Source of the DNA: Giardia intestinalis
Lineage: Eukaryota
Direction: 5' to 3' (one strand)
NCBI GenBank assembly: GCA_000002435.2
Contig: CM018790.1
Length of the DNA stretch: 64,000 nt
This document shows, piece by piece, positions 27,390 to 50,144 of this stretch. The notes beneath the pieces were generated by a model, which ran no database searches, was not told the DNA's origin, and worked only from the letters and a program-made list of their open reading frames with translations. The first letter of the stretch is position 1, and each line of letters starts with the position of its first letter. A program made the position numbers and the translations under genes.

Positions 27390-30300
27390 GCCCCGGACCA
27401 GTGGGTGCCGCTGGGGCCTGCCTGGAAGTATGATCCAAAGATCTCACAGGTAAGCCTCGCTCAGTCCCTGGCCAGCCCGGAGGCGGGGGCTGGCCACGGG
27501 TCGCAGTGATAGCCACAGTGGTGATAGGGAAGAGCTCCCTCCGTTTGTGGATCTGGGGCCTGTGCGTTCCTCGGCTGTTCTGCGGATGTGCACAGCTGGA
27601 CTTGAGGCGAAGGAGAGCCCGCGAGGACCAGATCCGTATTACGAACGCAAGATCATACCTTTGGGCCCCAGAGAGCAAGCCGTGAGTCTCTACTCGGAGG
27701 ACCACTTCGAAGACGCTTGCCCTCTCGGCAGGACACACACGCTGGCTCTGTGGCCTGCCGTGCGAGAGCGCCAAGCAACCAACCGAGCACCTGAGAGAAG
27801 CAAACGATGACAGACACAGAGTGCTGGGCGACGACAAGCTGATCCTTCCGGCCCACATACCGAACCAGACAGCTGCCATGCTCATCCACCAGGGTGCGCG
27901 CATGATCGCGAGCATCGAGCAGGCCGGGACTGGGGTCGCGCTCCCCGCAATCAGGGGCCTAGACGCCCTGGTGGGAAGCTGCCAGAGGGCCCCTCTGCCA
28001 GACAACACCACGGAGCAGTCCCAGAGCAAGGCAGACCCAGACCCCGAGAAGGCGAGGCGCCGGATAGCAAACAGGGTGAACAACGCGCTGAGCTTTAATA
28101 GCTGCCAGGTCCTCTGTTCCTTGACACACCCACGATAGACAAGCCAGAGAAGGCCAAGGCCCCCTCAGCGCGCTACACCCGTGCGTCCCCCCGAAGGCTG
28201 CGTTGGCCTTGACTACCCTCCATCGATGAACTCGACAGGGCTGGAGTGGCAACCGAGGAGGAAATGAGGAAGGCCCTGTTTGGAACTCTCAACAAGAAGG
28301 CCTCGGGCGTGTCTGGTCTCGGGCCGGTCCAGCTCAGGCGATGAAGCAGAACGACAGCTTTGTGAAATACCTCACGCAGGCGTACAACGAGCTGACCACT
28401 CACCCCGAGGCGATACCCGAGGTGACGACCATGTTCGAGTTCCGGGCGATCCTCATCCCGAAGGAGTCCGACGGATACCCCCGATCGCGATAGGCGGACG
28501 GTCACGAACACCTTCCACCGCGTCCTGCTGAAGGGCTGATCAGGCATGCCAACTACCTCTCATGCGAGCAGATCGCCTTCAAGCAGAACGCATACGCGGT
28601 AGGCGTGAGGAGGGCCCACGAGCTCATCAGCGGGCGGGGATGCACGCCGTCTCCCTCGACACAAAGAACGCCCTCAACTCGCTCCCGAGGGCAGAGGTCG
28701 TCAGAGCCCTGAACGAGGCGGGCGTCCCGAAGGTCCTGGTCGACTACATCAGGAACTTCCTCGACCTGAGGCACAGCAAGGACGTGAAGTGCGAGGTCTG
28801 CGGCGTCCCCCAGGGCGACCCGCTCAGCACGTTCCTCTTCTGCATGGCCACCGAGCGCCTCCTGAGACGCCTCGAGGAGAGGGGCATCGCCTTCCTTGCC
28901 TATGCAGACGACATCGTGGGGTTCCACGACGAAGGGTACCCAGCAGGTGTGATAACACAGCAGACCATGGACCTGACGATCAGGAGCGACAAATGCAAGT
29001 CCACCATGGCGGGCGAGGAGGTGACCTTCCTCAACCACCCGGCGTCCCCCACTCCTGCTAGTCTCGCCCCAAAGGCCATCGCAGGTGCCGAGACTGCCTT
29101 GAAGAAGATCGAGAATGCCCCAATAACCATCCACCAGAAGCTCATCCTGGTGTCACTCTGTGTGGTCCCGATGGTGAGCTACGCCCCCCTGGTCGAAGTA
29201 ACATCGGACAAGGCGGACTACGAGGAGTTCGACAGACGTCGCACAAGGCATCAGCACTAACCAACAGAAGCTGCGATCGCCTGGTCGACTTCCTAGCGTA
29301 CCCGAAGGAGAAGGGCGGCCTGGACCTGCTCATGCCTGGATTCTACCACGACGAGCTGCGGAGGGTATGGGCCTCCTTGGACGTCAACAAGGGGGCCAGA
29401 GACCCGGTGGAGCTGTCGGTGGGCGGCCAGGCACTGCAGGGGAAGGGGCCTACTTCAACCGCCTCCTCACGCGCACACACCAGCTTCCGGACAGAGCGGC
29501 GACGTACTGTCTGCAGATGTGCGGCGTGCTGACCGAGGAGGAAAGGGCCCTGAAGGAGAAGGGCGGCTCGATCATGGCGCAGAAAGAGGCACCTGCCCGG
29601 GCTGCCACGAGGCACGACATGATCGTCGCGTGCCTGTACCTCCGCGTCTCGGGGAAGCTCAGCGCAGAGCTGGAAGTCAAGACCCACAGCCACCTCAGCG
29701 ACCAGAACCAGAAGCCCGACATCTGGCTCGTCGACAAGTGCAAGGCAGTGGACGTGGGTGTCATCCAGCCCCGCCAGATGGATACCACAGCGAGAAGGCC
29801 AAGAAGTACAGGGACGGGACGCTCCCGATCATCTACGGGACGGACGGATCCCTCCACCCCAGTCCAAGGGGCACCTCAAGGAGCTCCACGTGGACCTCTG
29901 TCCGGGCTGCCTTCGCCATCGCCCACATGGCTGCAGAGGCGAACGAGCACCTGACGGGGCTGATCAGACGGGCCGGGCCGAAAGCCTGGCCACCCAGAGC
30001 GACCGTCTCCTGTCATCCTACTTCTGACAACCGAATGAGTCCATCCCCGGGACCTGTCGACAACGACCGAGAAGGGGCGCAAGACTGGACACACAACCGA
30101 GTTGAATCCCAACCAGAAGAGAAAGCCCCGCTAGCTGCTGCTGATATACATGGACAGTATTGAGAATGACAACAAAGACCAGAGCTTCACCAACCGTAAA
30201 GGGAGAACAAGGAGAGGCACCCTAGTAGACCAGCGAGCCTGCAGGACGGCGTGATCTCCAAAAGGATCTATGTGCACTCTTAGACCGAGCACACACCCGC

Positions 30301-30460
30301 AGAACACCCGAGGAACGCAGATAGCTCCTCCCTTCCACCACTGTGGTCTTTATATTGATACACGACCAACCCTCGTCTCCGGACATCACCAAAAATTGAG
30401 CGGGAATTTACCAGTAAGATCTCTGGACAGCGCCCGCAGGCAGGCCCCAGCGGCACACCA
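27390..30460 (+). mobile_element. Copy A of a ~3.1-kb degenerate non-LTR (R2-clade, restriction-like-endonuclease type) retrotransposon-like element, consistent with the 'dead' GilD family of Giardia. The RT/CCHC/RLE coding region is broken by shared frameshifts and stops. It has a 25-bp terminal inverted repeat.
   Basis: RT motifs are split across frames: FRAILIPKESDGYPRSR* ; FHRVLLKG* ; HAVSLDTKNALNS ; GVPQGDPLSTFLF ; FLAYADDIV. The downstream frame carries RHDMIVACL...KPDIWLVDKCKAVDVGV (RLE-like). 5' TIR at 27401-27424 and 3' TIR at 30436-30460 (caggcaggccccagcggcacaccac). Confidence 0.8.
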
Positions 30461-30537
30461 CACACTCAGTATACCTCTTTGGCAAAAGTATTCTTAATGA
30501 TATCATTGGTGTTAAGACCGATTGCTCCGGAAATTCC

Positions 30538-32562
30538 TTGCTGCACAAGGCCGCTCTGGAGTGCAGTGGCCTTGAAGCTAAAGCGCTTAGCTCGTCACTA
30601 GCCTACCTTTGCCGATTACGCAATACTTCTGGAGAGACAGCCTTACAATTGGCGATAAAACATGGAAATTTGGAGCTCGCCAAACTTCTGATTGATGAGG
30701 AAGCAGGTAGCTATTCTGACACAAAAGAATCTGCAGTGGAGCTGGCCCTTCTTCGGGGTTCATGCGAAGTAGCCAGGCTATTAATTCCATTTGAAGGGAA
30801 GATACTTACTGAGCGGGGGTATACGCAGCTGATGTTAGCGGCTTCGTTTGGTGAGAGACGACTCGTTGAGAAGTACATCCAACGACAAGCAAAGAGGCAG
30901 GCAAAGAATGGGGTCACTGCGATGCATTTGGCCGTTATATCTGCAATCTCGCTTCATAAGTCTATCAAGCTTCTGCTGCAAGAAAGAGATCGCTTGGCAA
31001 CTGACAGCGGCCACCTTATAGTAGAGGCAGAAGTTCCGCTGACCCACAGCTCTGTGACACCACGAAACACACGATCTCCACGGTCTATTAGTATCCTAAC
31101 CAAGTCTTGCGGTAGGGGTGACTTGTTTGCGCAGACAGCTGAAAAGGAATCAGCCTACTCTAGGCCACGTGTCACTTCGTCTAGACGCCCAATAACATCG
31201 GTACGATATCCAAGACAGACGCCGGCTCTATCTGCTAGTACACGTGTAGGAACACCAAAAAGCAGCTTCAGCTCACGAGGAGGCCAGCAAATATCTCCTA
31301 GCATTACCGTACCATCGATGCTATCCTCCTCTCCAAGAAAGAGGAGCGGAAGATGCGCGGCTTCGCGGTCTGGAGGCTCTAAAACATCTCCCATGGCGCG
31401 ACCGCGCACAACCCAAATCACAGCCCAAAAGCTTCCTGCTGAAGTTACTAAGCACCGGGCCCAGAGCACGTACGGAACCCAGCTTGACGGGAGCATAAAG
31501 GTACCAGTGCTTCAGCTTGATAACCTGAGCGGAAAGCATGTGTCATTTCCAGATACTCTCAGGATAAAGGACGATGCCAGCGTTGTAGAGTGTAGAATTA
31601 GAAAGCTCAGATCTCTGTTTCAAGCCTTCGTCGAGATTATCCTGCTCCTTATACCACTAGAAAAACAGATCTCCCAAAGGAATGGCCTCACGGTGCTCAT
31701 GATAGCTGCGAAGGCTGATGTTGTAGAACTAGTTAGACTGCTTGTCAATGACGAGAAGTTGATGGTAGATGCACGCGGAGAGACTGCCTTGATGATAGCA
31801 GTTAGGAACAATGCAGCAGCATCTGTCAAAGGGCTGCTTAGCCACGAGGCAACCCGTGCATCTGCCAATCGTGAACGCTATACCGCATTGCACCTAGCAG
31901 TGCAAACGAATAACAGCATTCTTGTTGAGCAGCTAGCAACTCTAGAGAATAATATTCCACAGGCATGCTACACGTTAAAAGACTTTCCTAACAGCAGGAA
32001 TGCGCACGCCTTGATCAACGTGACCGCCCTCATGATGGCGTCTATCGGTAATGCTCCAGAATGCGCTCTGATTCTCTCCAGATACGAGGCCGGGCGCCAC
32101 GAGCAGCTCTTCGGCTATACTGCGTTGATGCTTGCCGCATACTTCAATCACTCAGCCATTGTAGAGCTTCTTTTACATCCTGAATCGAGGGAGACTATGC
32201 GCAACGGCTGGACAGCGCTCATGGTTGCCAGCAGCAGAGGAAACCTTCGCTGCTGTGCTAAGCTGGCAACTTGCGAATCCAAGCTGACCGCTCAGGGGCT
32301 GACTGCGCTCATGCTAGCGTGCAAGCACAATTTCCTCAACATTGTGACGCTTCTCTATCCGCTCGAATCAAGCATCTATCACAAACGAGTAAGAAACGGG
32401 GTTGTGGAGCGTTGGTCCTGTTTAACATATGCGGCTGCAAAGGGGAGCACAGAGGTGGTAATGTTTCTCTTGGAACATCACCCCTCTCGAGAAGACATAC
32501 GATTGGCTGCGAGCTGCTCACATAACCCAAAGATATCAATCCTACTGTCAGCGCACCATTAA
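30538..32562 (+). CDS. Ankyrin-repeat protein ('protein 21.1'-type). The open frame begins just inside the 3' flank of element copy A with a TTG. The first in-frame ATG is at 30832, so the N-terminus is probably truncated or displaced.
   Basis: Many ankyrin repeats (GETALQLAIKHGNLELAKLLI, GVTAMHLAV..., NGLTVLMIAAKADVVELVRLLV, GWTALMVASSRGNLRCCAKL). There is no ATG for the first 98 codons of the open frame. Confidence 0.6.
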   Translation: MLHKAALECSGLEAKALSSSLAYLCRLRNTSGETALQLAIKHGNLELAKLLIDEEAGSYSDTKESAVELALLRGSCEVARLLIPFEGKILTERGYTQLMLAASFGERRLVEKYIQRQAKRQAKNGVTAMHLAVISAISLHKSIKLLLQERDRLATDSGHLIVEAEVPLTHSSVTPRNTRSPRSISILTKSCGRGDLFAQTAEKESAYSRPRVTSSRRPITSVRYPRQTPALSASTRVGTPKSSFSSRGGQQISPSITVPSMLSSSPRKRSGRCAASRSGGSKTSPMARPRTTQITAQKLPAEVTKHRAQSTYGTQLDGSIKVPVLQLDNLSGKHVSFPDTLRIKDDASVVECRIRKLRSLFQAFVEIILLLIPLEKQISQRNGLTVLMIAAKADVVELVRLLVNDEKLMVDARGETALMIAVRNNAAASVKGLLSHEATRASANRERYTALHLAVQTNNSILVEQLATLENNIPQACYTLKDFPNSRNAHALINVTALMMASIGNAPECALILSRYEAGRHEQLFGYTALMLAAYFNHSAIVELLLHPESRETMRNGWTALMVASSRGNLRCCAKLATCESKLTAQGLTALMLACKHNFLNIVTLLYPLESSIYHKRVRNGVVERWSCLTYAAAKGSTEVVMFLLEHHPSREDIRLAASCSHNPKISILLSAHH

Positions 32563-33118: not shown

Positions 33119-34957
33119 TCACTCAGAAAGGATCTCAATAATCTCCTCGTATATCAACTCATTAGCAATGTCGAGAGCCGTAGTACCAGCCTCGAATCCA
33201 ATAAACTCGCGGGTGGATCTTAAGTCCTTTTCCCTATCCTTAAGGAGTCTCACACACCCTGGCTCCCTGTTACACACTGCCCACATAAGGGCTGTCCATC
33301 CATATTTATCCGTCCTCTTTGTTTCCTGAATATTCCTTCTAACTGCTCCAACATCTCCAATGCAAGCAGCGCACATAAGGTTTGTCCAGCCCGAGGCATC
33401 ACGCTCGCTCTTGTGCTCACAGAGCAATCTGACACAGTCTGTATGGCCTTCCTCTGCTGCAAACATGAGGGCTGTCGAACCATCACTCTTCTGCATGCCC
33501 CCCTCCTTCTCTAGCAATAGTTTAACACAGTCTTGGTGGCCGTTCTGCGCTGCAAACATGAGGGCGGTCTTACCATCGCTATCCTTCATGCGCGCCTCTT
33601 TCTCTAGAAGCAGCTTGACGCACTCTGTGCGGCCGTTCTGTGCTGCCCACATGAGGGCTGTATATCCCCTGCCATCATGCACACCCGCTTGCTGAAGGTT
33701 ACTCCTAACCGCATCAGCATCTCCAATGCAAGCAGCGCACATAAGGTTTGTCCAGCCCGAGGCATCACGCTCGCTCTTGTGCTCACAGAGCAATCTGACA
33801 CAGTCTGTATGGCCTTCCTCTGCTGCAAACATGAGGGCTGTCGAACCATCACTCTTCTGCATGCCCCCCTCCTTCTCTAGCAATAGTTTAACACAGTCTT
33901 GGTGGCCGTTCTGCGCTGCAAACATGAGGGCGGTCTTACCATCGCTATCCTTCATGCGCGCCTCTTTCTCTAGAAGCAGCTTGACGCACTCTGTGCGGCC
34001 GTTCTGTGCTGCCCACATGAGAGCCGTCTTGTCATTGCTATCCTTCATGCCCTCCTCCTTCTCCAGGAGCAGTCTGGCGCACTCTGTGCGGCCGTTCTGC
34101 GCTGCAAACATGAGAGCCGTCTTATGGTTGTTGTCATATTTGCCACCCTCGCGACTAACTAGCAGTCGCACTACATCCGCATGGCCGTATTCCGCTGCTG
34201 TCATTAGAGCCGTCCCTCCGGTCATGCGCCATCTGTCTATCTTAACACCCCCTTCCGCTTTCTTTCTCTCTTGAAGGGGTAGCAATTCCATCATCTCTGC
34301 ATCTGTATCTCCATTCTCTGCCGCATTCACGAGGGATCTCCTCTGCATGCCACCCTCTTTCTCTAACAGTAGCTTGACACACTCCGCATGTCCACGCAGT
34401 GCTGCCATCATGAGGGCTGTCCATCCATCAGGCCTCTGCATACCCTCTTCTTTGTCAAGTAGAAGCTTAAGGCATTCTACGTGCCCATTCCTTGCTGTAG
34501 ACATGAGGGCTGTTTCCCCGGCTCCGTCCTTCATCCCCCCTTGAATTGGTACAAGCAGCCTTACCATTTCAGTGTCTCCCCTGGCTGCTGCCCGCATGAG
34601 TGCTGTGACTCCATTCCTATCTGTTGGATCCTCGTAGGATATAATTACCCTAGTAACCTCTAGGCGCCCGTCGTTGAGAGCATGACGCAGGGCGCTATGA
34701 TCTTGATCACCCTTCACATCCTTCCCGCGCTCCAGGACGGACTTTATCGCCTCTATGGGACTATACCCCGCCACCCACATGAGAGCTGTTTGACCATGGT
34801 TGTCCTGTCTACAGATTAGATTAAACCTAGTACCCAGTAACCCCTTGACATCTTCCGTACCATCCTTAGCGGTCTGCATGAGCTCGGTCACACCACCTGA
34901 GGGGCTCGGGGGGCCGCCAGATTCAACACGCCTGCGATCAACATCGCTCTGTGCCAT
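33119..34957 (-). CDS. Ankyrin-repeat protein ('protein 21.1'-type) with an internal 366-bp tandem duplication. The probable start ATG is at 34957 (aaaataaaaATGgc). An upstream ATG at 35014 lies inside a 30-bp duplicated initiator segment.
   Basis: Repeated ankyrin units (TALMWAAQNGRTECVKLLLEKE...). A 122-aa block is exactly duplicated. Confidence 0.75.
   Translation of the reverse strand: MAQSDVDRRRVESGGPPSPSGGVTELMQTAKDGTEDVKGLLGTRFNLICRQDNHGQTALMWVAGYSPIEAIKSVLERGKDVKGDQDHSALRHALNDGRLEVTRVIISYEDPTDRNGVTALMRAAARGDTEMVRLLVPIQGGMKDGAGETALMSTARNGHVECLKLLLDKEEGMQRPDGWTALMMAALRGHAECVKLLLEKEGGMQRRSLVNAAENGDTDAEMMELLPLQERKKAEGGVKIDRWRMTGGTALMTAAEYGHADVVRLLVSREGGKYDNNHKTALMFAAQNGRTECARLLLEKEEGMKDSNDKTALMWAAQNGRTECVKLLLEKEARMKDSDGKTALMFAAQNGHQDCVKLLLEKEGGMQKSDGSTALMFAAEEGHTDCVRLLCEHKSERDASGWTNLMCAACIGDADAVRSNLQQAGVHDGRGYTALMWAAQNGRTECVKLLLEKEARMKDSDGKTALMFAAQNGHQDCVKLLLEKEGGMQKSDGSTALMFAAEEGHTDCVRLLCEHKSERDASGWTNLMCAACIGDVGAVRRNIQETKRTDKYGWTALMWAVCNREPGCVRLLKDREKDLRSTREFIGFEAGTTALDIANELIYEEIIEILSE
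33350..34082. repeat. Near-perfect tandem duplication, 366-bp unit in two copies, inside the ankyrin gene.
   Basis: Antisense ORFs at 33360 and 33726 start identically (MQAAHIRFVQPEASRSLLCSQSNLTQ...) and stay identical for about 100 aa. The sense protein repeats a block of about 122 aa (YTALMWAAQNGRTECVKLLLEKEARMKDSDGKTALMFAAQNGHQDCVKLLLEKEGGMQKSDGSTALMFAAEEGHTDCVRLLCEHKSERDASGWTNLMCAACIGD) twice. Confidence 0.8.
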
Positions 34958-35306
34958 TTTTATTTTCTCTCCTGGCCAAGTGCAATTTTCATTTTCTCTC
35001 CTGGCCAAGTGCATAAGACCGCAATTATTTCGTAATTTACACTACCCAAGCTACGATGCACTACAGCTATATGGCATAGGCTCCTGCATATTTTCTGTTG
35101 CATGCCGTAATGGTGTAGTGTGCAGTACTACACTACTCCGGGCTGTTACCGACCAGAGCTCGCCGAGTAGACCAGTCGTCTGAGGCAGAGGCGGACACTT
35201 ATGTAGGGACCGAGGGCCTTCTGCTCTACAGATGGATGGCTATGAGACGCGGCATATCGCCTGCTCGTTGGTAGGGGCTTCTCGACGGCAGGGAACGCTG
35301 CTTTCA

Positions 35307-38300
35307 GTGGTGTGCCGCTGGGGCCTGCCTGCGGGCGCTGTCCAGAGATCTTACTGGTAAATTCCCGCTCAATTTTTGGTGATGTCCGGAGACGAGGGTT
35401 GGTCGTGTATCAATATAAAGACCACAGTGGTGGAAGGGAGGAGCTATCTGCGTTCCTCGGGTGTTCTGCGGGTGTGTGCTCGGTCTAAGAGTGCACATAG
35501 ATCCTTTTGGAGATCACGCCGTCCTGCAGGCTCGCTGGTCTACTAGGGTGCCTCTCCTTGTTCTCCCTTTACGGTTGGTGAAGCTCTGGTCTTTGTTGTC
35601 ATTCTCAATGCTGTCCATACAGATCGGCAGCAGCTAGCGGGGCTTTCTCTTCTGGTTGGGATTCAACTCGGTTGTGTGTCCAGTCTTTGCCCCTTCTCGG
35701 TCGTTGTCGTCGGGTCCCAGGGATGGACTCATTCGGTTGTCAGAAGTAGGATGACAGGAGGCGGGGTGACCAGGCTTTCGGCCCGGCCCGTCTGATCAGC
35801 CCCGTCAGGTCCTCGTTCGCCTCTGCAGCCATGTAGGCGATGGCGAAGGCAGCCCGGACAGAGGTCCACGTGGAGCTCCTTGAGGTGCCCCTTGGACTGG
35901 GGTGGAGGGATCCGTCCGTCCCGTAGATGATCGGGAGCGTCCCGTCCCTGTACTTCTTGGCCTTCTCGCTGTGGTATCCATCTGGCGGGGCTGGATGACA
36001 CCCACGTCCACTGCCTTGCACTTGTCGACGAGCCAGATGTCGGGCTTCTGGTTCTGGTCGCTGAGGTGGCTGTGGGTCTTGACTTCCAGCTCTGCGCTGA
36101 GCTTCCCCGAGACGCGGAGGTACAGGCACGCGACGATCATGTCGTGCCTCGTGGCAGCCCGGGCAGGTGCCTCTTTCTGCGCCATGATCGAGCCGCCCTT
36201 CTCCTTCAGGGCCCTTTCCTCCTCGGTCAGCACGCCGCACATCTGCAGACAGTACGTCGCCGCTCTGTCCGGAAGCTGGTGTGTGCGCGTGAGGAGGCGG
36301 TTGAAGTAGGCCCCTTCCCCTGCAGTGCCTGGCCGCCCACCGACAGCTCCACCGGGTCTCTGGCCCCCTTGTTGACGTCCAAGGAGGCCCATACCCTCCG
36401 CAGCTCGTCGTGGTAGAATCCAGGCATGAGCAGGTCCAGGCCGCCCTTCTCCTTCGGGTACGCTAGGAAGTCGACCAGGCGATCGCAGCTTCTGTTGGTT
36501 AGTGCTGATGCCTTGTGCGACGTCTGTCGAACTCCTCGTAGTCCGCCTTGTCCGATGTTACTTCGACCAGGGGGGCGTAGCTCACCATCGGGACCACACA
36601 GAGTGACACCAGGATGAGCTTCTGGTGGATGGTTATTGGGGCATTCTCGATCTTCTTCAAGGCAGTCTCGGCACCTGCGATGGCCTTTGGGGCGAGACTA
36701 GCAGGAGTGGGGGACGCCGGGTGGTTGAGGAAGGTCACCTCCTCGCCCGCCATGGTGGACTTGCATTTGTCGCTCCTGATCGTCAGGTCCATGGTCTGCT
36801 GTGTTATCACACCTGCTGGGTACCCTTCGTCGTGGAACCCCACGATGTCGTCTGCATAGGCAAGGAAGGCGATGCCCCTCTCCTCGAGGCGTCTCAGGAG
36901 GCGCTCGGTGGCCATGCAGAAGAGGAACGTGCTGAGCGGGTCGCCCTGGGGGACGCCGCAGACCTCGCACTTCACGTCCTTGCTGTGCCTCAGGTCGAGG
37001 AAGTTCCTGATGTAGTCGACCAGGACCTTCGGGACGCCCGCCTCGTTCAGGGCTCTGACGACCTCTGCCCTCGGGAGCGAGTTGAGGGCGTTCTTTGTGT
37101 CGAGGGAGACGGCGTGCATCCCCGCCCGCTGATGAGCTCGTGGGCCCTCCTCACGCCTACCGCGTATGCGTTCTGCTTGAAGGCGATCTGCTCGCATGAG
37201 AGGTAGTTGGCATGCCTGATCAGCCCTTCAGCAGGACGCGGTGGAAGATGTTCGTGACCGTCCGCCTATCGCGATCGGGGGTATCCGTCGGACTCCTTCG
37301 GGATGAGGATCGCCCGGAACTCGAACATGGTCGTCACCTCGGGTATCGCCTCGGGGTGAGTGGTCAGCTCGTTGTACGCCTGCGTGAGGTATTTCACAAA
37401 GCTGTCGTTCTGCTTCATCGCCTGAGCTGGACCGGCCCGAGACCAGACACGCCCGAGGCCTTCTTGTTGAGAGTTCCAAACAGGGCCTTCCTCATTTCCT
37501 CCTCGGTTGCCACTCCAGCCCTGTCGAGTTCATCGATGGAGGGTAGTCAAGGCCAACGCAGCCTTCGGGGGGACGCACGGGTGTAGCGCGCTGAGGGGGC
37601 CTTGGCCTTCTCTGGCTTGTCTATCGTGGGTGTGTCAAGGAACAGAGGACCTGGCAGCCATTAAAGCTCAGCGCGTTGTTCACCCTGTTTGCTATCCGGC
37701 GCCTCGCCTTCTCGGGGTCTGGGTCTGCCTTGCTCTGGGACTGCTCCGTGGTGTTGTCTGGCAGAGGGGCCCTCTGGCAGCTTCCCACCAGGGCGTCTAG
37801 GCCCCTGATTGCGGGGAGCGCGACCCCAGTCCCGGCCTGCTCGATGCTCGCGATCATGCGCGCACCCTGGTGGATGAGCATGGCAGCTGTCTGGTTCGGT
37901 ATGTGGGCCGGAAGGATCAGCTTGTCGTCGCCCAGCACTCTGTGTCTGTCATCGTTTGCTTCTCTCAGGTGCTCGGTTGGTTGCTTGGCGCTCTCGCACG
38001 GCAGGCCACAGAGCCAGCGTGTGTGTCCTGCCGAGAGGGCAAGCGTCTTCGAAGTGGTCCTCCGAGTAGAGACTCACGGCTTGCTCTCTGGGGCCCAAAG
38101 GTATGATCTTGCGTTCGTAATACGGATCTGGTCCTCGCGGGCTCTCCTTCGCCTCAAGTCCAGCTGTGCACATCCGCAGAACAGCCGAGGAACGCACAGG
38201 CCCCAGATCCACAAACGGAGGGAGCTCTTCCCTATCACCACTGTGGCTATCACTGCGACCCGTGGCCAGCCCCCGCCTCCGGGCTGGCCAGGGACTGAGC

Positions 38301-38676: not shown

Positions 38677-38727
38677 TGACGGACAGTGAAAAGCCGATTA
38701 TTAATTCACACCTGTTAAATGCACGCT

Positions 38728-39831: not shown

Positions 39832-40083
39832 TCAAATTATTGCCAGGAGAAGGTCTAGATTGCGTTGGCTTTCTTTCTCAGTGGGGGCTGTGCCTCGTAG
39901 CTCCTGGCCCGGGGTCAAGGCTGTCTCTATGACGCTGTCGAAGCAGATGTGGTCTTCTAGGCACCATAAGTAATCTTCGTGCACAAACAGGTCCTCCCCG
40001 GCCGGAGAGGCGCTGCTTGGGAGCAAAATGTGCGGCTGATATGTTGTGCCAGCCATGATTGGTTTGTAATTCTCCGTCCACAT
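39832..40083 (-). CDS. Small hypothetical ORF of 83 aa with an AT-rich initiator. Low confidence.
   Basis: True ATG at 40083 preceded by aaaaactaATG. No recognisable homology. Confidence 0.3.
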   Translation of the reverse strand: MWTENYKPIMAGTTYQPHILLPSSASPAGEDLFVHEDYLWCLEDHICFDSVIETALTPGQELRGTAPTEKESQRNLDLLLAII

Positions 40084-40552
40084 TAGTTTTTATGTCATTA
40101 CTTTTTACTTTTGCATAAAGCAGCAGCTTATTGCAGCATCAGTAGTCTTGCGCCAATTACATACTAGATTATAGCGTGCTTTTTCATACGTTAGGCATAC
40201 TTTTGGGCTGCAAGTTAATTGCTGGGCTTAAAGGTTGACAATGCCAATTTGTGCACCAGATCAGATTGTACTGTGTTCTTGCTTGACAACTGGTCTAATT
40301 GTGACTCAAGCAGGGCGTGCCTTATTGCTTCAATCCGTGGATTTATATTCTTGAATTCATAAAGAGATTCCCTGCACCACAATGCCACACATGAATAGTT
40401 GTAACCAGGCAGTGTCGACCCTATCCAACCCCATCGTTGGCAGTTACCAGTTCAGCAGACTCTTGTGGCTGCTTAGCTTCAAAATTTACAGAGTCTAACA
40501 GCAATATGGATGCTCAGGGTTTGTGTTCAACTATCAAAACAGCGCTAACCCT

Positions 40553-43045
40553 TCAGAGTAGCGTTGCATTTAATGTCCTGGCCATTACGGAGTCGGTGAT
40601 CACGGCCTGTTGCGCATTGGGGTTACGAGAGAGCGCATCTTTTCGAACAGCGGTCTTCGCTAGTTCATAAGCAAATAGCACGCTACGGATCGTGATAGGA
40701 ATACGTCGCTTTTGCCTCTCCAAAAAGAGCTTGTATACAGCATACGCCTCATACTCGACGGGATTGGGTTGGAGATAGTATCTCACGCTAACTTGGTGGG
40801 CAGCGTTTCGCTTTTCCTCTAGATCGAGGGCAACAGTGGCGTATTCACAGAGCGCGCAGAGGGCTTGGTCGGGGGTGAGGGATGGAATGTTGCAAACCTG
40901 ATTGAAAACGCCTGCAAACCCAACGTCGCTCATTGCTTTCAAGTGCGTAGTAGTGCCGAGGACAACGAGTCGGTGATCAGGCTGGGTTGGTCTACGAATA
41001 AGAGCAGTGAGGGTCTGAAGGACAGTACTGGAGAATCGGAAGCCAATGGGCGTATACTGTATGATGGACTCTATGCCATCCAGAATTATTAGAGCGCGCG
41101 GGACCCTGTAGGCTGCCTCAAAGATTTGACATATAAGGTCCGCACGTCCATACTCTGTCGAAGTCCTCATAACAAGCTGCTCTGCAGAGATAATTCGAAC
41201 AAACTCACATCCAAGCCTCTTCGCAATAACAGAGCATAGAGCTGTACAACCAGTTCCAGTTGCAGGCGCTGCAAGCAGCATAGCGCCGGTGGTAATACTG
41301 CTGTTTAGGACAGCCTCTCCAAAAGACACAGCCTGCTGGACGACAGACTCGTAGCCGGTAGCCTTGAGGATACCTAGAGGCGCTGCAGCATCTAGCAGCG
41401 TGCGGTCTGCCTGGCCGTATCCTGCTTTAACCTCCCCCAGGGCCCTTTCAAAATCCTTTGCCTCCACTTGGACGCCAATCATGTCCAAATAGAGTAACTT
41501 GTTAGGACCCACCGACTTTGTTTTCTCAATAGCACGCTCCATGGCAAAGGATGTAGCAGACCTAACAAGACCTGCCAGTTCAGCGCCAGAGAAATTAGGA
41601 GTGCACTCAGCGAGGTGTGCGATATTGACATCGCTTGCAAGAGACTTGGCAGCAACCAGGTTTTTAGTGTGGATCCTCAGAATCTGCTCTCTTCCTCTGC
41701 AGTCGGGAAGACCAATCTCCAGGTGCACTTCAAAGCGGCCGGGACGCATCAGAGCCTCGTCCAGAAGCTCTTTCCTGTTGGTCATACCAACCACGAGCAC
41801 GTTACCAAGCGCGTCGGGCCCGTCCATCATCGCAAGTAGCTGGTTAACCAGGCTGTCCATTGTTCCAGTGTTGTCCGACTTGCTGCCTCGTTGCTTGCAT
41901 ACTGCATCAAGCTCGTCGATAATGATTATGTGGAGCTCGGATGCATTCTCGCGCTCTTTCCACTCCTTAAACGCGTCGCTGAACAGATCGCGCACCTTCT
42001 GCTCCGACCCACCAATGTACTTATCTAGAAGCTCTGAACCGGAAACCATCTTTGGAGGCCGCGCGTTCAGCAACTCGCCAATCTTCCTGGCTGTCAACGT
42101 TTTTCCTGTTCCAGGTGGTCCGTACAAAAGGAGACCCTTGACGTGTGTCTGGCCAAGCTTTGCTAACTTGTCCGGTGGAAATATTCGTGACATGAACGCG
42201 CGCCTAAATATGTCCTTAAACTGCTTATTAAGGCCCCCTATTCCTAAGCTTTCTGCGTTGATTATGCCCCCCTGCTCATTCTTCTCAGACGTGTCGCTGA
42301 TGAGATTCATCAGCGCCTTAGCCACCGCAGAGACTTCTGCGATTGCGTACTCCCCGGTGAGCTCTATTTCCTTTATTTGAGTCTGGAAGATTGTTGCAGT
42401 ATCGGTACAGAAAGTAAGCGTGGTCTCGTCGCTCACTATCTCCCTGTTGTCGCCAAACATGCCAACAACCATCAAGATGAAGAAGTCAGAACCGTCACTA
42501 ATGGCAAGGTCCTGACCGATAGCGAGAGGGAGGTGGACAAATTTCTCTGTAATACGGGCGTTGAGATTTGCCGTGCTTATGGTTACCGGCTTTTGTTGTT
42601 TAACCATTGGCTTGATCATGAATACCACAGCGATGGCCCTGGCAGTAGCGTCAAACTTGGACCGTGACACAGTGATGGGAGTATTGTCCAAAGGCGCCCA
42701 CTTTGTCTCATGAAACGGTGATAGGAGGATCACACCCTGAGGAACCTTGGGCACGGGGTCATGGTGGGCTGTAGCTGATCCGATGTCCTTTCCTGGTCTC
42801 ACTAGGACGACGTGGCCGTTCCTCTCAAGGTAGACGTTATCAGACTTCTCGTTGCCAAGAACTGCAGCATAGTCACTAGGACATAAGTATGCACAGTTGG
42901 TCTCGAGCAAAGAGGTGCTAGGGTACTTACCGGGTTTATTAGGGTACTTACCGGCTTTGTAGCTGAATCCCTCCCCAGACATTTGACAACCCTGTTTTTT
43001 AATAAGTTCGTTAGTAAAATTGGACAAAGGTGTGGAATGGAACAT
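40553..43045 (-). CDS. NSF: N-ethylmaleimide-sensitive factor (NSF), AAA+ ATPase with N, D1 and D2 domains, 830 aa. An alternative start ATG at 42982 is preceded by ttaaaaaacagggttgtcaaATG.
   Basis: D1: GIGGLNKQFKDIFRRAFMSRIFPP...VKGLLLYGPPGTGKTLTARKIGELLNARPPKMVSGSELLDKYIGGSEQKVRDLF...IIIIDELDAVCKQRG...GMTNRKELLDEALMRPGRFEVHLEIGLPD matches NSF D1 almost motif-for-motif. A degenerate D2 P-loop follows. Confidence 0.85.
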   Translation of the reverse strand: MFHSTPLSNFTNELIKKQGCQMSGEGFSYKAGKYPNKPGKYPSTSLLETNCAYLCPSDYAAVLGNEKSDNVYLERNGHVVLVRPGKDIGSATAHHDPVPKVPQGVILLSPFHETKWAPLDNTPITVSRSKFDATARAIAVVFMIKPMVKQQKPVTISTANLNARITEKFVHLPLAIGQDLAISDGSDFFILMVVGMFGDNREIVSDETTLTFCTDTATIFQTQIKEIELTGEYAIAEVSAVAKALMNLISDTSEKNEQGGIINAESLGIGGLNKQFKDIFRRAFMSRIFPPDKLAKLGQTHVKGLLLYGPPGTGKTLTARKIGELLNARPPKMVSGSELLDKYIGGSEQKVRDLFSDAFKEWKERENASELHIIIIDELDAVCKQRGSKSDNTGTMDSLVNQLLAMMDGPDALGNVLVVGMTNRKELLDEALMRPGRFEVHLEIGLPDCRGREQILRIHTKNLVAAKSLASDVNIAHLAECTPNFSGAELAGLVRSATSFAMERAIEKTKSVGPNKLLYLDMIGVQVEAKDFERALGEVKAGYGQADRTLLDAAAPLGILKATGYESVVQQAVSFGEAVLNSSITTGAMLLAAPATGTGCTALCSVIAKRLGCEFVRIISAEQLVMRTSTEYGRADLICQIFEAAYRVPRALIILDGIESIIQYTPIGFRFSSTVLQTLTALIRRPTQPDHRLVVLGTTTHLKAMSDVGFAGVFNQVCNIPSLTPDQALCALCEYATVALDLEEKRNAAHQVSVRYYLQPNPVEYEAYAVYKLFLERQKRRIPITIRSVLFAYELAKTAVRKDALSRNPNAQQAVITDSVMARTLNATLL

Positions 43046-46000
43046 CTATCCATCAGGTTCCGTGGTGTTTGCGCAGACACCACGGAAGCACCCATACCCA
43101 CCAACAAGATTAAGACCCGGAAGTACAATTGGATTGTTTTTCCCTTTGTTGCTGTCCTCAAACAGTTCCGGCTTTTCTTCAACCAGTTTTTCTTGGTTCT
43201 AGCCTTTCTCCAGCTCTATCGCCCTCTTCAAGTTGGCCTCGCCTTTACATACTACCTTCCTCTATGTTTCATTGTCCTAGTCAGTGTTGGGCGCGAATTG
43301 TATGATGAGCTGAATCGAGCAAGACGTGACAAGTCAGTCAATAGTGGCAAGTACAATATCATTGGCCCCTATGGACTCGTTCCTACTAAGTCCGAAGACA
43401 TTAAGGTTGGAAGCATCGTGCTTCTAGAGCCAAATCAGAGGGTTCCCGCGGACATCGTTATCCTCCAAGCCGTGGGTCATTTGTATGTCAAGACAGTCAA
43501 TCTGGATGGGGAAACAGATCTAAAGGTCAAGATGCCTTTGCTTGGTACTGTCGATAGCCCAGAAACACTGGCAGCACCGGACCTGCTCTCTGCAATCCTT
43601 GATTCCATCCACGTTACCTATGCCAAGCCATCGGATAATCTCTATCACTTTTCCGGGGCTCTTCAAAACGCACAAACTGACGTTGTAATTGGACCCATTA
43701 CAGTTTCTAATGCAATCTGGATGAATTGCAGTCTTGCGCGCGGATACGCAACGGGATTGGTTGTCTACACAGGGAAGAGCACACGCATTATGCAGAACCT
43801 TGGACGGCGACGGGTTAAACAAGGGTCTCTCGATGTTGAGCTGAACATGTTTGTCAAGGGCATGTTCATTTTCTGTCTGCTCCTGTCAGCGCTGGTTACA
43901 TTTGCCACCACAACCAGAAGTATTATCGTCTTTGTTCGTTGGATCATAATCCTCAGCTCGATTATTCCGTTGGCCATGCAGGTTTCCTATAACTTCGGCA
44001 AGCTCGTCATGGCCGGAAGTATTAAGCGGGACGACACCATAAGTGGGATTGAGGTCAGATCAACCGATCTAGCTGAAGAGCTGGGCCGCATTAGCCATGT
44101 CTTCAGCGACAAAACAGGGACTCTGACACGGAACGAGATGTGGCTCCATGAGGTTGTTGGAGAAAAAAGCCCAGCTTGTCTGTCCACGTATTTGATAATT
44201 ACGCTAGCGAATTGCAGCGCATCGTCCTCTTTGCAATCATGACATGTCACAACGTCGAGTTGTTCCGCGAGGATCAGGATTCACCAGAGCAAGATACCGC
44301 CCTCAGGCCAAGAAGGAGGAGGCAGCCAAGGACTTGCTCAGCAAGCACTAGTCAATCATCTGAACAGAGAGTGTCTCAGGAGCCAACTAGCTTTCTCGAC
44401 GCAAGCATCTCTGAGGCCATCGGGCTCGAAGATCGATCTCAGCCTGTGCAGACGCTCTCACTTTCCGATTCACCAACAGAATTGCTCTTTACGCGCCGCG
44501 AGATTGACGAAAATCTGATCCTTAATCGATATATTGGCTCATCTCCCGACGAGGTTGCAATAATAAGAAGCATGCATGCGCGGGGCTATATACTGGAAGA
44601 AAAGTCACATAATCTTGTACGCTACACTGCTAGTACAGGATCTCAAAAGTTTGAGCTTCTTCATACCTTTCCATTTACATCAGAGACCAAGCGCATGTCT
44701 GTCGTCACTCACCACATTGCTACCGGAACCACGTTTATTTTCGTTAAGGGAGCAGACACAACTATTGAGGCGTCTGCCAAGTACTGTCCATGGCTTCGAA
44801 ACACCGTCGATGCTTTGGCAGGGCTGGGGCGGAGGACCCTCGTGTATGCGTACCGCACGCTCGACGATGACGACCTTAGTAATTTTCATTCATCCATTAC
44901 TGCTGCGTCTGCAGATCTGGCAAACCGAGATTCCATACTCGTGAAATGCGAAGAGACTCTGCTGACAGGGGTGGAGGTCTTGTGTGTAACAGGAATCGAA
45001 GATCAGCTCCAGCTCAATGTGAAGGCAACGATCCAGGATCTGAAAAGAGCAGGAATTAAGTTCTGGATGTTGACCGGAGACAAGGTTGTGACATGTTTGA
45101 GCATAGCCCAGTCGTGCGGTTTGCTCCCAAATACAGCAGTCAAGAAGCATACCAGCAAGCTTCGTGCATCCGAGAATACCGCGCCTTTGACTACTCAGTC
45201 GCTGCATCCTGAGGCATGTAAGTATCCAACTACTCCATCTCTAGACGCTGTATCTATTCCTACAAGATCTGAGATAGAAGTGGGCCAAGAGGATAAGACA
45301 CCCATGGCAATTCTCCGCAGAGCCATTCGAGATGATCCCAATTCCTTCATGAGTGTCACCTCCAGAAGAGAAAAGCGGCTCAATAGAAAGAAACGCCCAG
45401 GGTCTCTTGTTTTAGCAAGCACGTGCTATGGGCGCTTGAGTGAGCATATCTACTTCTTGACAGAGGAGCTCACCCCTGTTGAAATAGTCTCCGTTCTGAA
45501 AGAGCTCTCTCAAATGGTTAGCTTCACACATGAGGTTACCATCGTCATAGACGGATCAGCGCTGGAGAAACTCCTCGGTAATTACCCCGTGGACTACTTC
45601 TACACACATGCAATCCATCCCATCACTGGGAACCTTCTTCCTCTGCACCCGTGTGTAAGGATCTGGAGGAGATTCACCCGCTGGTTACTTATCTACCTCA
45701 CAGGACACCCCAGACGCGGCAAGGGGAGCCTGGGACCAGATGCAGAGACGCGCGAGCTTTTTGCAAGTATTGCTAGCAAGGCAGAAACGGTCCTCTGCTG
45801 CCGCTGCACACCAACGCAGAAGGCCCTTGTTGCAGGTCTCATTTCGGTATACACAGGCAGCAAATCCCTAGGGATAGGCGACGGGGCAAATGACGTCCCC
45901 CTGATCGAAACTTGCTCTGTCGGCATAGGACTGCGGGGCAAGGAGGGCAACCAGGCGGCCAACGCAGCAGACTATGTGATGACAGAATTCCGAGGACTGA

Positions 46001-47061
46001 AGAAGCTTCTGCTATGGTATGGCAAGTGTAGCTACGTGGGTAGTGCACAGATATGCCAGTTTATCGTCCAGCGCGGGGTTGCGCTATGCTTGCTCCAGAT
46101 TTGTTTCACCTGCCTTTACTTTTTCACGTCTCTCGTTCTTCACACCGGGGTACTCCTCTTGGGATACGTGACGCTATTCACAATGTTTCCACCGTTCAAC
46201 TATTATATTAACGAAGATGTGGACTACCAATTAGTACTAAAATACCCAGAAATCTATCGGATTACGTCGCGTGGATCTATTCTGAACCTTAAGACATTTT
46301 TTCTCTGGACATTTAGTGGCTTTATTATAGCAGTGGTAGTGTTTCTTCTCGCATATATCTTCTCGTCGTTTCCCATTTCTGTCAGCGGATTTACGTTTTT
46401 CAGTTTCGCCATACTGCTGTGGAGCGAGCTCTGCCTGATCCTTGTGACTACCCATCGCTTTTCCCTTATGCTCCTCGTTGCCTTGCTTCTCAGCTACTTG
46501 ATGCTATTCTTGGTTGTTGCCATTTATCCAGGCTCCTTGACTCGTAGCGAAGTATTTTCTCTAGATATGTTTTGGCGCTTATGCGTAACAAACGCAATAT
46601 CGGCTGTACTGCTTTTTGTCGGTGAACGCATCGTTCGCCGGTTCTCTAAGCCAAACGTGGTCCGTATTCTCAGATCAATGAGAAAGCCAGTTTATTGTGC
46701 TACATGCAAAGTTCCACGGTGTTGCACGCGTGAGTCGCAACAGAATGTGGCTGTCATAGGCAAGCCTTCTTTCAACCAAGACCATCCTGGCCTATCTCGC
46801 AGCGTCTTACGAGATCGAAGTAAGCCCATGTATAGAGCAGGCTCTGGGATAAAAACGGAATCCGAATCTGGCTCGGGGTGGCCCTCTGGTATGGTAGTGA
46901 CGAGCAGATCCTACAGGCGACCCTCTTCATCGAGCTATGTCCGTCTGCGAGGCATTTACATTCTAAGCTCCACTGGGAGACACTTCTTCAATATGCCGGA
47001 GAGTGTTTTCAACATCCTCACACTCAGGATGTGTCGTCGTTGCGTCAGAATAAATTCTTAG
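43037..47061 (+). CDS. P4-type P-type ATPase (phospholipid flippase-like). It is read as two track ORFs (42983-44242 and 44176-47061) separated by an apparent 1-bp frameshift in an A6 run at 44163-44168. The first ATG is at 43037.
   Basis: N-terminus NKIKTRKYNWIVFPFVAVLKQFRLFFNQFFL, the phosphorylation motif SDKTGTLTRNEM, then in the second frame ...LFAIMTCHNVE, MLTGDKVVTCLSIAQSCGLL and GIGDGANDVPLIETCSVGIGLRGKEGNQAANAADYV (P4-ATPase hinge signature). The frame-2 tail after ...VVGEK is junk (SPACLSTYLIITLANCSASSSLQS*). Confidence 0.8.
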
Positions 47062-47063
47062 AT

Positions 47064-50000
47064 TCGGATTTACTCCACCCACCGGTTGCTTCCAGTGGTG
47101 TGCCGCTGGGGCCTGCCTGGAAGTATGATCCAAAGATCTCACAGGTAAGCCTCGCTCAGTCCCTGGCCAGCCCGGAGGCGGGGGCTGGCCACGGGTCGCA
47201 GTGATAGCCACAGTGGTGATAGGGAAGAGCTCCCTCCGTTTGTGGATCTGGGGCCTGTGCGTTCCTCGGCTGTTCTGCGGATGTGCACAGCTGGACTTGA
47301 GGCGAAGGAGAGCCCGCGAGGACCAGATCCGTATTACGAACGCAAGATCATACCTTTGGGCCCCAGAGAGCAAGCCGTGAGTCTCTACTCGGAGGACCAC
47401 TTCGAAGACGCTTGCCCTCTCGGCAGGACACACACGCTGGCTCTGTGGCCTGCCGTGCGAGAGCGCCAAGCAACCAACCGAGCACCTGAGAGAAGCAAAC
47501 GATGACAGACACAGAGTGCTGGGCGACGACAAGCTGATCCTTCCGGCCCACATACCGAACCAGACAGCTGCCATGCTCATCCACCAGGGTGCGCGCATGA
47601 TCGCGAGCATCGAGCAGGCCGGGACTGGGGTCGCGCTCCCCGCAATCAGGGGCCTAGACGCCCTGGTGGGAAGCTGCCAGAGGGCCCCTCTGCCAGACAA
47701 CACCACGGAGCAGTCCCAGAGCAAGGCAGACCCAGACCCCGAGAAGGCGAGGCGCCGGATAGCAAACAGGGTGAACAACGCGCTGAGCTTTAATGGCTGC
47801 CAGGTCCTCTGTTCCTTGACACACCCACGATAGACAAGCCAGAGAAGGCCAAGGCCCCCTCAGCGCGCTACACCCGTGCGTCCCCCCGAAGGCTGCGTTG
47901 GCCTTGACTACCCTCCATCGATGAACTCGACAGGGCTGGAGTGGCAACCGAGGAGGAAATGAGGAAGGCCCTGTTTGGAACTCTCAACAAGAAGGCCTCG
48001 GGCGTGTCTGGTCTCGGGCCGGTCCAGCTCAGGCGATGAAGCAGAACGACAGCTTTGTGAAATACCTCACGCAGGCGTACAACGAGCTGACCACTCACCC
48101 CGAGGCGATACCCGAGGTGACGACCATGTTCGAGTTCCGGGCGATCCTCATCCCGAAGGAGTCCGACGGATACCCCCGATCGCGATAGGCGGACGGTCAC
48201 GAACATCTTCCACCGCGTCCTGCTGAAGGGCTGATCAGGCATGCCAACTACCTCTCATGCGAGCAGATCGCCTTCAAGCAGAACGCATACGCGGTAGGCG
48301 TGAGGAGGGCCCACGAGCTCATCAGCGGGCGGGGATGCACGCCGTCTCCCTCGACACAAAGAACGCCCTCAACTCGCTCCCGAGGGCAGAGGTCGTCAGA
48401 GCCCTGAACGAGGCGGGCGTCCCGAAGGTCCTGGTCGACTACATCAGGAACTTCCTCGACCTGAGGCACAGCAAGGACGTGAAGTGCGAGGTCTGCGGCG
48501 TCCCCCAGGGCGACCCGCTCAGCACGTTCCTCTTCTGCATGGCCACCGAGCGCCTCCTGAGACGCCTCGAGGAGAGGGGCATCGCCTTCCTTGCCTATGC
48601 AGACGACATCGTGGGGTTCCACGACGAAGGGTACCCAGCAGGTGTGATAACACAGCAGACCATGGACCTGACGATCAGGAGCGACAAATGCAAGTCCACC
48701 ATGGCGGGCGAGGAGGTGACCTTCCTCAACCACCCGGCGTCCCCCACTCCTGCTAGTCTCGCCCCAAAGGCCATCGCAGGTGCCGAGACTGCCTTGAAGA
48801 AGATCGAGAATGCCCCAATAACCATCCACCAGAAGCTCATCCTGGTGTCACTCTGTGTGGTCCCGATGGTGAGCTACGCCCCCCTGGTCGAAGTAACATC
48901 GGACAAGGCGGACTACGAGGAGTTCGACAGACGTCGCACAAGGCATCAGCACTAACCAACAGAAGCTGCGATCGCCTGGTCGACTTCCTAGCGTACCCGA
49001 AGGAGAAGGGCGGCCTGGACCTGCTCATGCCTGGATTCTACCACGACGAGCTGCGGAGGGTATGGGCCTCCTTGGACGTCAACAAGGGGGCCAGAGACCC
49101 GGTGGAGCTGTCGGTGGGCGGCCAGGCACTGCAGGGGAAGGGGCCTACTTCAACCGCCTCCTCACGCGCACACACCAGCTTCCGGACAGAGCGGCGACGT
49201 ACTGTCTGCAGATGTGCGGCGTGCTGACCGAGGAGGAAAGGGCCCTGAAGGAGAAGGGCGGCTCGATCATGGCGCAGAAAGAGGCACCTGCCCGGGCTGC
49301 CACGAGGCACGACATGATCGTCGCGTGCCTGTACCTCCGCGTCTCGGGGAAGCTCAGCGCAGAGCTGGAAGTCAAGACCCACAGCCACCTCAGCGACCAG
49401 AACCAGAAGCCCGACATCTGGCTCGTCGACAAGTGCAAGGCAGTGGACGTGGGTGTCATCCAGCCCCGCCAGATGGATACCACAGCGAGAAGGCCAAGAA
49501 GTACAGGGACGGGACGCTCCCGATCATCTACGGGACGGACGGATCCCTCCACCCCAGTCCAAGGGGCACCTCAAGGAGCTCCACGTGGACCTCTGTCCGG
49601 GCTGCCTTCGCCATCGCCTACATGGCTGCAGAGGCGAACGAGGACCTGACGGGGCTGATCAGACGGGCCGGGCCGAAAGCCTGGTCACCCCGCCTCCTGT
49701 CATCCTACTTCTGACAACCGAATGAGTCCATCCCTGGGACCCGACGACAACGACCGAGAAGGGGCAAAGACTGGACACACAATCGAGTTGAATCCCAACC
49801 AGAAGAGAAAGCCCGCTAGCTGCTGCCGATCTGTATGGACAGCATTGAGAATGACAACAAAGACCAGAGCTTCACCAACCGTAAAGGGAGAACAAGGAGA
49901 GGCACCCTAGTAGACCAGCGAGCCTGCAGGACGGCGTGATCTCCAAAAGGACCGATGTGCACACCCAGTCTGAGTGTACTCCTGTAGAATAGCCGAGGAA

Positions 50001-50144
50001 CGCAATAGCTTCTCCCTACAACCGATGTGATTATCGTTACGGCCCGTGACCAACCCTCGTCTCCGGACATCGCCAAAAATTGAGCGGGAATTTACTCGCG
50101 AGATTTGCGGACAGCGCCCGCAGGCGAGGGCCCAGCGGCACACA
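47064..50144 (+). mobile_element. Copy C of the degenerate retroelement. It begins 2 bp after the stop codon of the P4-ATPase.
   Basis: Same ORF fragments as copy A (47516-47833, 47975-48226, 48257-48955 RT fragment, 49062-49649, ...). 5' TIR at 47095-47119. Degenerate 3' TIR at 50119-50144 (caggcgagggcccagcggcacacac). Confidence 0.8.

Follow-up and report, generated by a model that had tools for sequence, protein, structure and literature searches.

RESULTS

Three GilD copies in a Giardia subtelomere

The window analyzed here is a 64,000-nucleotide stretch of the genome of Giardia intestinalis isolate WB (GenBank assembly GCA_000002435.2, contig CM018790.1). Among genes for variant-specific surface protein (VSP), for NEK kinases that bear ankyrin repeats, for ankyrin proteins of Protein 21.1 type and for dynein heavy chain, it holds three copies (A, B and C) of GilD, a non-telomeric, degenerate family of retrotransposons that lack long terminal repeats (non-LTR), an identification that follows from their match to the described features of the family. 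An earlier note on this DNA, made from the letters alone, had reported three ~99%-identical copies of a dead reverse transcriptase (RT) element, and had reasoned from their common frameshifts and stops that the element multiplied after it had lost function, through trans-mobilization by an active relative such as GilM or GilT, or through duplication or gene conversion at the DNA level. Self-comparison of the window and a three-way alignment bore out the description: three near-identical dead RT copies with common lesions, each of ~3.07 kb and all within 23 kb of one another (Table 1), with B positioned between A and C and inverted relative to both.

Similarity among the copies begins and ends abruptly, and the 200-nt flanks that we included in the three-way alignment are unrelated; A, B and C are thus not parts of a larger duplicated block, an origin that the earlier note had recognized would undo its reading. 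Pairwise identity was 99.0–99.2% for A–B, 98.0% for B–C and 97.4–97.7% for A–C, so that the figure of ~99% holds for A and B and is slightly generous for C. Stretches of 2.2–2.5 kb show 100% identity, and divergence gathers at the 3′ end, where the last 195 nt of C are ~17–25% different. The peptide variants noted previously (SFNSCQVL/SFNGCQVL at 28100, and AHMAAEANEHL/AYMAAEANEDL at 29924 and 29948) are real, and all are private to A. The 5′ terminus of A has small deletions, amounting to ~11–30 nt by comparison with B and C. All three copies have a GC content of 62% and a sense strand with a strong excess of A over T.

Table 1. Features of the window that bear on the three GilD copies (coordinates are window positions)
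Feature	Position	Strand	Remarks
GilD/Genie 2 copy A	27398-30461	+	Window self-comparison, three-way alignment
GilD/Genie 2 copy B	35307-38385; inverted-repeat match extends to 35299	-	Window self-comparison, three-way alignment
GilD/Genie 2 copy C	47069-50143, probably to ~50151	+	Window self-comparison, three-way alignment
RT remnant of copy A	28341-29260	+	Broken up by 1-nt deletions
Probable C-terminal restriction-like endonuclease remnant (RHD…KPDIW…D…K), copy A	29519-29954	+	
5′ arm of terminal inverted repeat, copy A	27398-27590 (partner 30292-30461)	+	
Homogenized tract	A 27405-29923 (+) = B 35836-38354 = C 47100-49618		2519 nt
Unconverted A patch	29924-30158	+	15 events private to A over 235 nt
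3′ end of C, unconverted or converted in another way	49962-50143 (= A 30267-30461)	+	47 C-private events
Segmental duplicate of GL50803_0060028 locus (4.0-Mb contig): aa 256-1906 plus 873 nt downstream	20947-26785	+	Upstream of A
5′-truncated paralog (aa 256-953, 3′ two-thirds) of Ankyrin repeat protein 1	30465-32561	+	Begins 3 nt after A end
Duplicated 8.7-kb segment with a truncated 345-aa giardin, alpha-9 giardin, NSF and a frameshifted flippase	38391-47061		
GilM/GilT-type telomeric retrotransposon C-terminus	62689-64000	-	Only other RT-family element in the window

Assignment to GilD

Three retrotransposon families have been described in Giardia: GilM and GilT, which are telomeric, and GilD, the dead family, whose copies are broken by deletions and lie close to VSP genes (PMC2861651; PMC10999387). 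The window elements fit the last of these in coding content and in surroundings. The 232-aa open reading frame (ORF) at 28562-29257 of copy A is identical to XP_001703964.1, annotated as 'Reverse transcriptase/endonuclease' of WB and present at two loci in the 2007 annotation, and five of the flanking proteins exactly match WB C6 proteins (KAE8302549-556) encoded on the 1,539,535-bp contig. This ORF of copy A matched RVT_1 with E = 4e–16, and a more intact relative (P0004) matched with E = 1.7e–24; YADD and GVPQG motifs are present. Downstream, the remnant RHD…KPDIW…D…K can be aligned to the GilM/GilT-type C-terminus, and intact relatives show CCHC…RHD…PD…D…K. The CCHC knuckle is present in the most intact GilD relative that we found (L001, described below) and deleted in A, B and C; no Pfam model covers the C-terminal domain, and no match to an apurinic/apyrimidinic (AP) endonuclease was seen. 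GilD is described from non-telomeric, gene-poor surroundings beside VSP genes (PMC2861651). One VSP gene (53518-56331) lies 3.4 kb from C, and a GilD copy of isolate DH (L002) sits between two VSP genes.

The termini also conform. In these elements the 3′ end recurs at the 5′ end in inverted and imperfect form, with arms of ~155–190 nt at ~73% identity; at the very terminus ~20 nt pair perfectly in A, while B, whose 5′ end is intact, has 32–33 nt that are 97–100% complementary. We take the GilD of Arkhipova & Morrison (2001, PNAS 98:14497) to be the Genie 2 of Burke et al. (2002, MBE 19:619), for which terminal inverted repeats reaching 172 bp are reported, its 5′ end being an inverted copy of its 3′ end. 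The family was published as dead in 2001, and A, B and C lie in the very genome in which it was defined. The earlier note had correctly placed the element in Giardia and in the company of GilM and GilT, without giving it its own name.

Lesions shared by the three copies

Lesions were called against the reading frame of L001, a metagenome contig of 2.87 kb (ENA ERZ28627677, scaffold_2536, 2870 nt) that was the most intact relative found; a majority consensus of five lineages had no open frame, and L001 was taken in its place. Its three ORFs (183, 267 and 367 aa) abut one another and are interrupted by only two frameshifts, and RT motifs 1-2 and the CCHC knuckle are intact. L001 is far better preserved than any copy in WB or DH, and its DNA has 93% identity to that of the window copies. 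Some lineage of Giardia may have had an active GilD until more recently, or may still harbor one that is nearly intact.

By this reference A, B and C have at least 18 frameshifting deletions in common, and the frames are not disrupted differently in each copy. Shared deletions of 1–2 nt stand at ~28096, 28106, 28188, 28246, 28335, 28479, 28496, 28533, 28634, 29236, 29255, 29448, 29583, 29860 and 29970; others are of 4, 4, 11 and 59 nt, the last of these (at ~29604) having taken out the CCHC knuckle. The sole indel of the former ORF that differs among the copies is an 8-nt deletion at 29995, found only in B and C. No codon of the L001 frame has mutated to a stop in any of the three, matching the degeneration by deletion that characterizes GilD. 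The stops previously remarked on within the RT motifs (after DGYPRSR and FHRVLLKG) do occur, although they are not nonsense substitutions: they result, downstream, from three deletions of 1 nt (28479, 28496 and 28533).

Two of the insertions are old

For comparison we used isolate DH, of sub-assemblage AII. Its contig AHGT01000102 (L006) is colinear with window positions 10967-27930 and crosses, with base-for-base agreement, the junction at the 5′ end of A; the same junction is found in a metagenome contig (L007). Another DH contig, AHGT01000103 (L013), is colinear with 38391-53635 and spans both junctions of C base for base. Both sites are thus occupied in DH, and both insertions are older than the AI/AII split. 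This occupancy is robust, and makes A and C old insertions. Genome-wide average nucleotide identity between AI and AII is ~98.3% (PMC9618722); in the non-coding flanks here, divergence between WB and DH was 4–15%.

Paralogs are closer than orthologs

Copies that pre-date a split should differ from one another at least as much as each differs from its ortholog. The reverse was observed. Over the central 2.2 kb, WB-B and WB-C had no differences at 2201 positions and WB-A differed from them at 2 of 2201, yet WB-C differed from its ortholog DH-C at 99 of 2175 (4.7%; Jukes–Cantor distance 0.047), and every DH copy seen was at least 4.6% from the WB trio. WB A and C differ from each other ~50-fold less than WB-C does from its ortholog, implying that their identity was imposed after the split, by exchange at the DNA level. 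In the 5′ 526 nt, 24 sites grouped the copies by isolate (WB-A = WB-C, differing from DH-A = DH-C) and none grouped them by locus, a pattern to which collapse in the DH assembly possibly contributes. The lesions are likewise distributed incongruently with orthology: the deletions of WB-C at 28096, 28106, 28121 and 28634 recur in a non-orthologous DH copy (L003) and are absent from the ortholog DH-C, which has five deletions of its own. Together with the excess of paralog over ortholog identity, the lesions carry the hallmark of concerted evolution driven by ectopic gene conversion.

The differences that remain among A, B and C are patterned in tracts. Sixty-nine difference events were counted, 20 private to A, 49 private to C and none private to B. 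These make up 4 runs, against an expectation of 29 (z = –7.5). The A-private events number 2 in 27405-29923, 15 in the patch that follows, and 3 at the 5′ terminus; 47 of the 49 C-private events are in the last 195 nt. Throughout the homogenized tract B and C are identical, and the only A-private substitutions are those at 28100 and 28511. In the A patch the state of outgroup copies is kept at about two thirds of the sites. B is accordingly an exact patchwork, C-type over its 5′ 2.76 kb (to about A-coordinate 30158) and A-like over its last ~200–300 nt. At the 3′ end WB-C is of a divergent type and DH-C is A-like, which points to conversion there too, in one of the lineages. The flanks of A, B and C are not homogenized.

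A further difference between the isolates was seen just outside C, where ~35 nt 3′ of the element (window 50144-50180 vs. 17170-17200 of AHGT01000103) are wholly different between WB and DH, after which the flank realigns perfectly. The DH end, …CACCACTGG, resembles the canonical inverted-repeat terminus; that of WB is …CACACTAAAAAAC. The 3′ junction of C has been remodeled in one lineage.

Hallmarks of retrotransposition are absent

The comparison of flanks that the earlier note had called for revealed no target-site duplications at A, B or C, with no shared flank k-mer longer than 6 nt, and no poly(A) tail was found at any copy. When copy A was compared with 59900-64000, which includes the GilM/GilT-type element, the matches returned by blastn at word size 7 were all attributable to chance and no longer than 20 nt, the 3′ end included; in the C-terminal domain the two are 27% identical as protein. 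This lack of nucleotide likeness leaves no evident handle by which a GilM/GilT-type element could mobilize GilD in trans. When an intact ORF was sought as a possible autonomous source, only fragments of GilD ORFs, and none that was intact, were found among 5.8 billion proteins. The longest, DH ORFs of 587 and 595 aa, run through shifted frames, and they too have the 28479 deletion.

A subtelomeric patchwork of segmental duplications

The surroundings of A, B and C, on a 1.54-Mb WB chromosome, are a subtelomeric patchwork made up of segmental duplications. Arrangements of rDNA with GilM/GilT are characteristic of Giardia chromosome ends, and the right end of the window, with a fragment of large-subunit (LSU) rRNA and a GilM/GilT-type element, marks the region as subtelomeric. 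The LSU rRNA fragment (59973-60331, + strand, 359 nt) is isolated, and corresponds to model positions 1891-2388. It is followed, in 60332-64000, by a very GC-rich (67%) stretch and then the minus-strand C-terminus of the GilM/GilT-type RT/endonuclease; the whole of 59973-64000 looks like a junction of the subtelomere with a telomeric retrotransposon array.

The 5′ ends of B (6 nt away) and C (7 nt after the flippase stop codon) stand at the two edges of the largest duplicated segment, which has an intact paralog on a 1.97-Mb contig. By comparison with that paralog the duplicate is decaying: its flippase is split by a frameshift into 401 + 940 aa (1341 aa when intact), its alpha-9 giardin is of 253 aa vs. 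301 aa, and the 5′ end of B cuts its 345-aa giardin short after ~97 codons. Between this duplicate and the other paralog, identity is mosaic, ranging from 91 to 100% in 500-nt windows, which suggests that conversion acts between segmental duplicates as well. The paralogous source loci have no GilD at the edges of homology, and the junctions are therefore not simple GilD–GilD crossovers; they look like the insertion or end-joining seams of an old patchwork that is at least partly common to DH.

Both truncated paralogs on either side of A begin at residue 256, of GL50803_0060028 (1906 aa) and of Ankyrin repeat protein 1 (953 aa), respectively; this common start is probably a coincidence. We considered whether these 5′-truncated copies had arisen as retrocopies, through RT template switching. 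For the larger this was rejected, as its homology continues beyond the stop codon for 873 nt and reaches into the next gene, making it a genomic rather than a cDNA duplicate, and for the ankyrin fragment, where homology fades ~20 nt past the stop and there is no poly(A), a retrocopy origin is unlikely.

Stretches beside A (26786-27397) and C (50144-53500) are GC-rich, contain no recognizable gene and have diverged by 4–15% between WB and DH. Next to the former, at 26560-26784, is a degenerate NEK-kinase N-terminus with 73–79% identity to 56906-57131. These stretches and the NEK remnant are probably decayed pseudogenes of the patchwork.

Other content of the window

Between A and B lies an open 631-aa ankyrin-repeat ORF (33119-35014, – strand) with an internal 366-nt repeat (33323-33622 and 33689-33988, 97%); its best match among 5.8 billion proteins, WB annotations included, was only 45%. 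The VSP gene near C contains fifteen tandem 111-nt units at 54275-56134 (– strand) that are 94–100% identical and encode a 37-aa CXXC-rich repeat. At the left end of the window (1-2926, + strand) is a coiled-coil ORF, with 973 aa inside the window and no Pfam match, which has an exact 951-nt tandem duplication (1-300 = 952-1251) and an excess of A over T like that of the retroelements.

DISCUSSION

We consider that the near-identity of A, B and C probably arose through recent ectopic recombination among insertions of which at least A and C were old, rather than through jumping by an element already dead. On this account A and C, at least, would have inserted before the separation of AI and AII, and the frameshift lesions would also be old; recent ectopic homologous recombination among the three copies would then have made them near-identical and so given them one and the same set of lesions. 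The process would be gene conversion, possibly with an inversion or a crossover in the case of B, replacing ~2.5 kb in every copy by a single sequence and leaving short unconverted patches toward the 3′ ends. Given its composition, B appears recently to have swapped long tracts with both A and C, and its having been donor to both would be the most economical reading. That conversion took place, rather than another outcome of homologous recombination, and that transfer ran from B to A and C, are what we infer. Retrotransposition after inactivation is not required. The conclusion that the element multiplied after it was dead does not follow, given that A and C stand at the same junctions in DH and that their identity was imposed later; gene conversion, offered in the earlier note as an alternative, is what the contrast between paralogs and orthologs and the mosaic tracts support.

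Several points weigh against this explanation. It draws on a single comparison genome, and the DH assembly is fragmented and of short-read or 454-like type, in which GilD interiors may be the collapsed consensus of multiple copies. This doubt is greatest for the 533 nt at the end of AHGT01000102, where collapse would inflate the similarity of DH-A and DH-C. At the position of the B junction, AHGT01000103 continues into intact giardin genes. That contig may be a chimeric path through the 8.7-kb repeat, whose duplicates are 99% identical over the relevant 1 kb (39301-40300); B could therefore be a truly new copy. A 253-aa giardin variant (P0060), used as a probe for the B junction in DH, led to the core paralog only. 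Finally, the deletions at 28479 and 28496 occur in all assemblage-A copies examined, even those ~6–8% diverged in the central region. Conversion among three neighbors does not explain these two, which hint at amplification of a defective master, or at conversion that is genome-wide.

The presence of those two deletions in every assemblage-A copy seen is what would be expected had a defective master been retrotransposed in trans, by GilM/GilT or by an active GilD, to give at least B and perhaps all three copies. The precise full-length ends and unrelated flanks also fit such an origin, as do the GilM/GilT-type element 12 kb away in the window, the occurrence in a metagenome of L001, a far less damaged GilD with two frameshifts over 2.87 kb, and the lack of any private mutation in B, which must be either very young or very recently rewritten. 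We nevertheless find this very unlikely. The sites of A and C are filled in DH, target-site duplications and poly(A) tails are absent, GilD shows no nucleotide similarity to the GilM/GilT-type element even at the 3′ end, and no intact GilD ORF was found in the protein collection searched; moreover, the C-type 5′ part and A-type 3′ part of B would not come from a single RNA template, barring a pre-existing chimera. The earlier suggestion of trans-mobilization by GilM/GilT is left without support on the same grounds, that is, the lack of a shared 3′ end and of target-site duplications or poly(A), and the perfect A/C patchwork of B, though B alone might still have come about in that way. It is somewhat easier to imagine, if still improbable, that DNA rearrangement without conversion suffices, B having come from subtelomeric breakage and repair, or from non-allelic crossover or inversion between GilD copies, in the same event that built the patchwork. 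Every copy does adjoin one duplicated segment or more (at 3 nt for A, 6 nt for B and 7 nt for C), B and C are inverted relative to each other and turn their 5′ ends toward the 8.7-kb segment, and a C/A chimera such as B is expected of reciprocal exchange between inverted repeats. Yet rearrangement leaves unexplained the 2.5-kb identity of A and C, which are old and at orthologous sites, so that conversion would still be needed, and the core loci (L008 and L014) have no GilD at the edges of homology; this account overlaps with recombination among old insertions rather than excluding it. Least credible of all is that the copies are in reality less similar and were homogenized by assembly or polishing. 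Consensus polishing can yield near-perfect identity over a 2.2-kb repeat; set against this are the 200x PacBio coverage and optical maps of the WB assembly, polished by Quiver and with long reads only (PMC7000408), the distinctive terminal variants and unique flanks that each copy retains, and the earlier Sanger-based annotation, which already had the identical 232-aa RT ORF twice.

In themselves A, B and C show no difference from GilD/Genie 2 as described: they come from the same organism and the WB isolate, are non-LTR elements of ~3 kb with RT, a probable C-terminal restriction-like endonuclease and inverted repeats, and are inactivated, as are all copies of the family, mainly by deletions, outside the telomeric arrays and next to VSP genes. 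What is added is conversion among neighboring copies and the AII orthology of two of them. GilM and GilT (Genie 1) belong to the same ancient endonuclease-bearing clade, with conserved positions of the C-terminal CCHC, RHD and PD…D…K, and differ in forming head-to-tail telomeric arrays with intact ORFs that are potentially active (GilM is 5.5 kb; PMC7000408). As in the ectopic conversion known for yeast Ty elements, subtelomeric Y′ elements and the palindrome arms of the human Y chromosome, paralogs are far closer than orthologs, tracts are sharp and flanks are untouched, and the setting, with close copies, inverted pairs and a subtelomeric location, is also comparable. Here, however, what serves as substrate is a dead retrotransposon, its host being a protist that is tetraploid and largely asexual, and donor and direction can be given only by inference. 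Trans-mobilized elements, such as short interspersed elements (SINEs), HeT-A/TART and defective L1, resemble the GilD copies in their shared disabling lesions, of which some are family-wide, and in their full-length ends; the differences are that GilD has no 3′ end shared with a partner, no target-site duplication or poly(A), and, for A and C, no insertion polymorphism.

Neither a new kind of element nor a new mechanism of mobilization emerges from this work, and the GilD family itself was already known. What is modestly new is the direct evidence of very recent ectopic conversion among dead retrotransposons in a Giardia subtelomere, along with the AII orthology of two of the copies. A caution follows for other genomes: near-identical copies with shared lesions are commonly taken as proof that a dead element has recently amplified, and here at least two such copies are old insertions that were probably rewritten. 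One could go further, and see dead GilD as a recombination module whose ongoing conversion sustains the non-allelic recombination that shuffles and duplicates VSP-adjacent subtelomeric segments, B being a product that post-dates the AI/AII split or, less likely, one of retrotransposition in trans; the abutment of the copies on the edges of segmental duplications and the lack of private mutations in B prompt this idea, though we hold it to be unlikely. The WB genome is famous for near-zero heterozygosity, and the mechanisms of recombination in Giardia are debated. To this the window contributes a small, concrete case in which subtelomeric DNA next to VSP genes has undergone ectopic recombination very recently, and in which GilD copies mark the seams of the patchwork.

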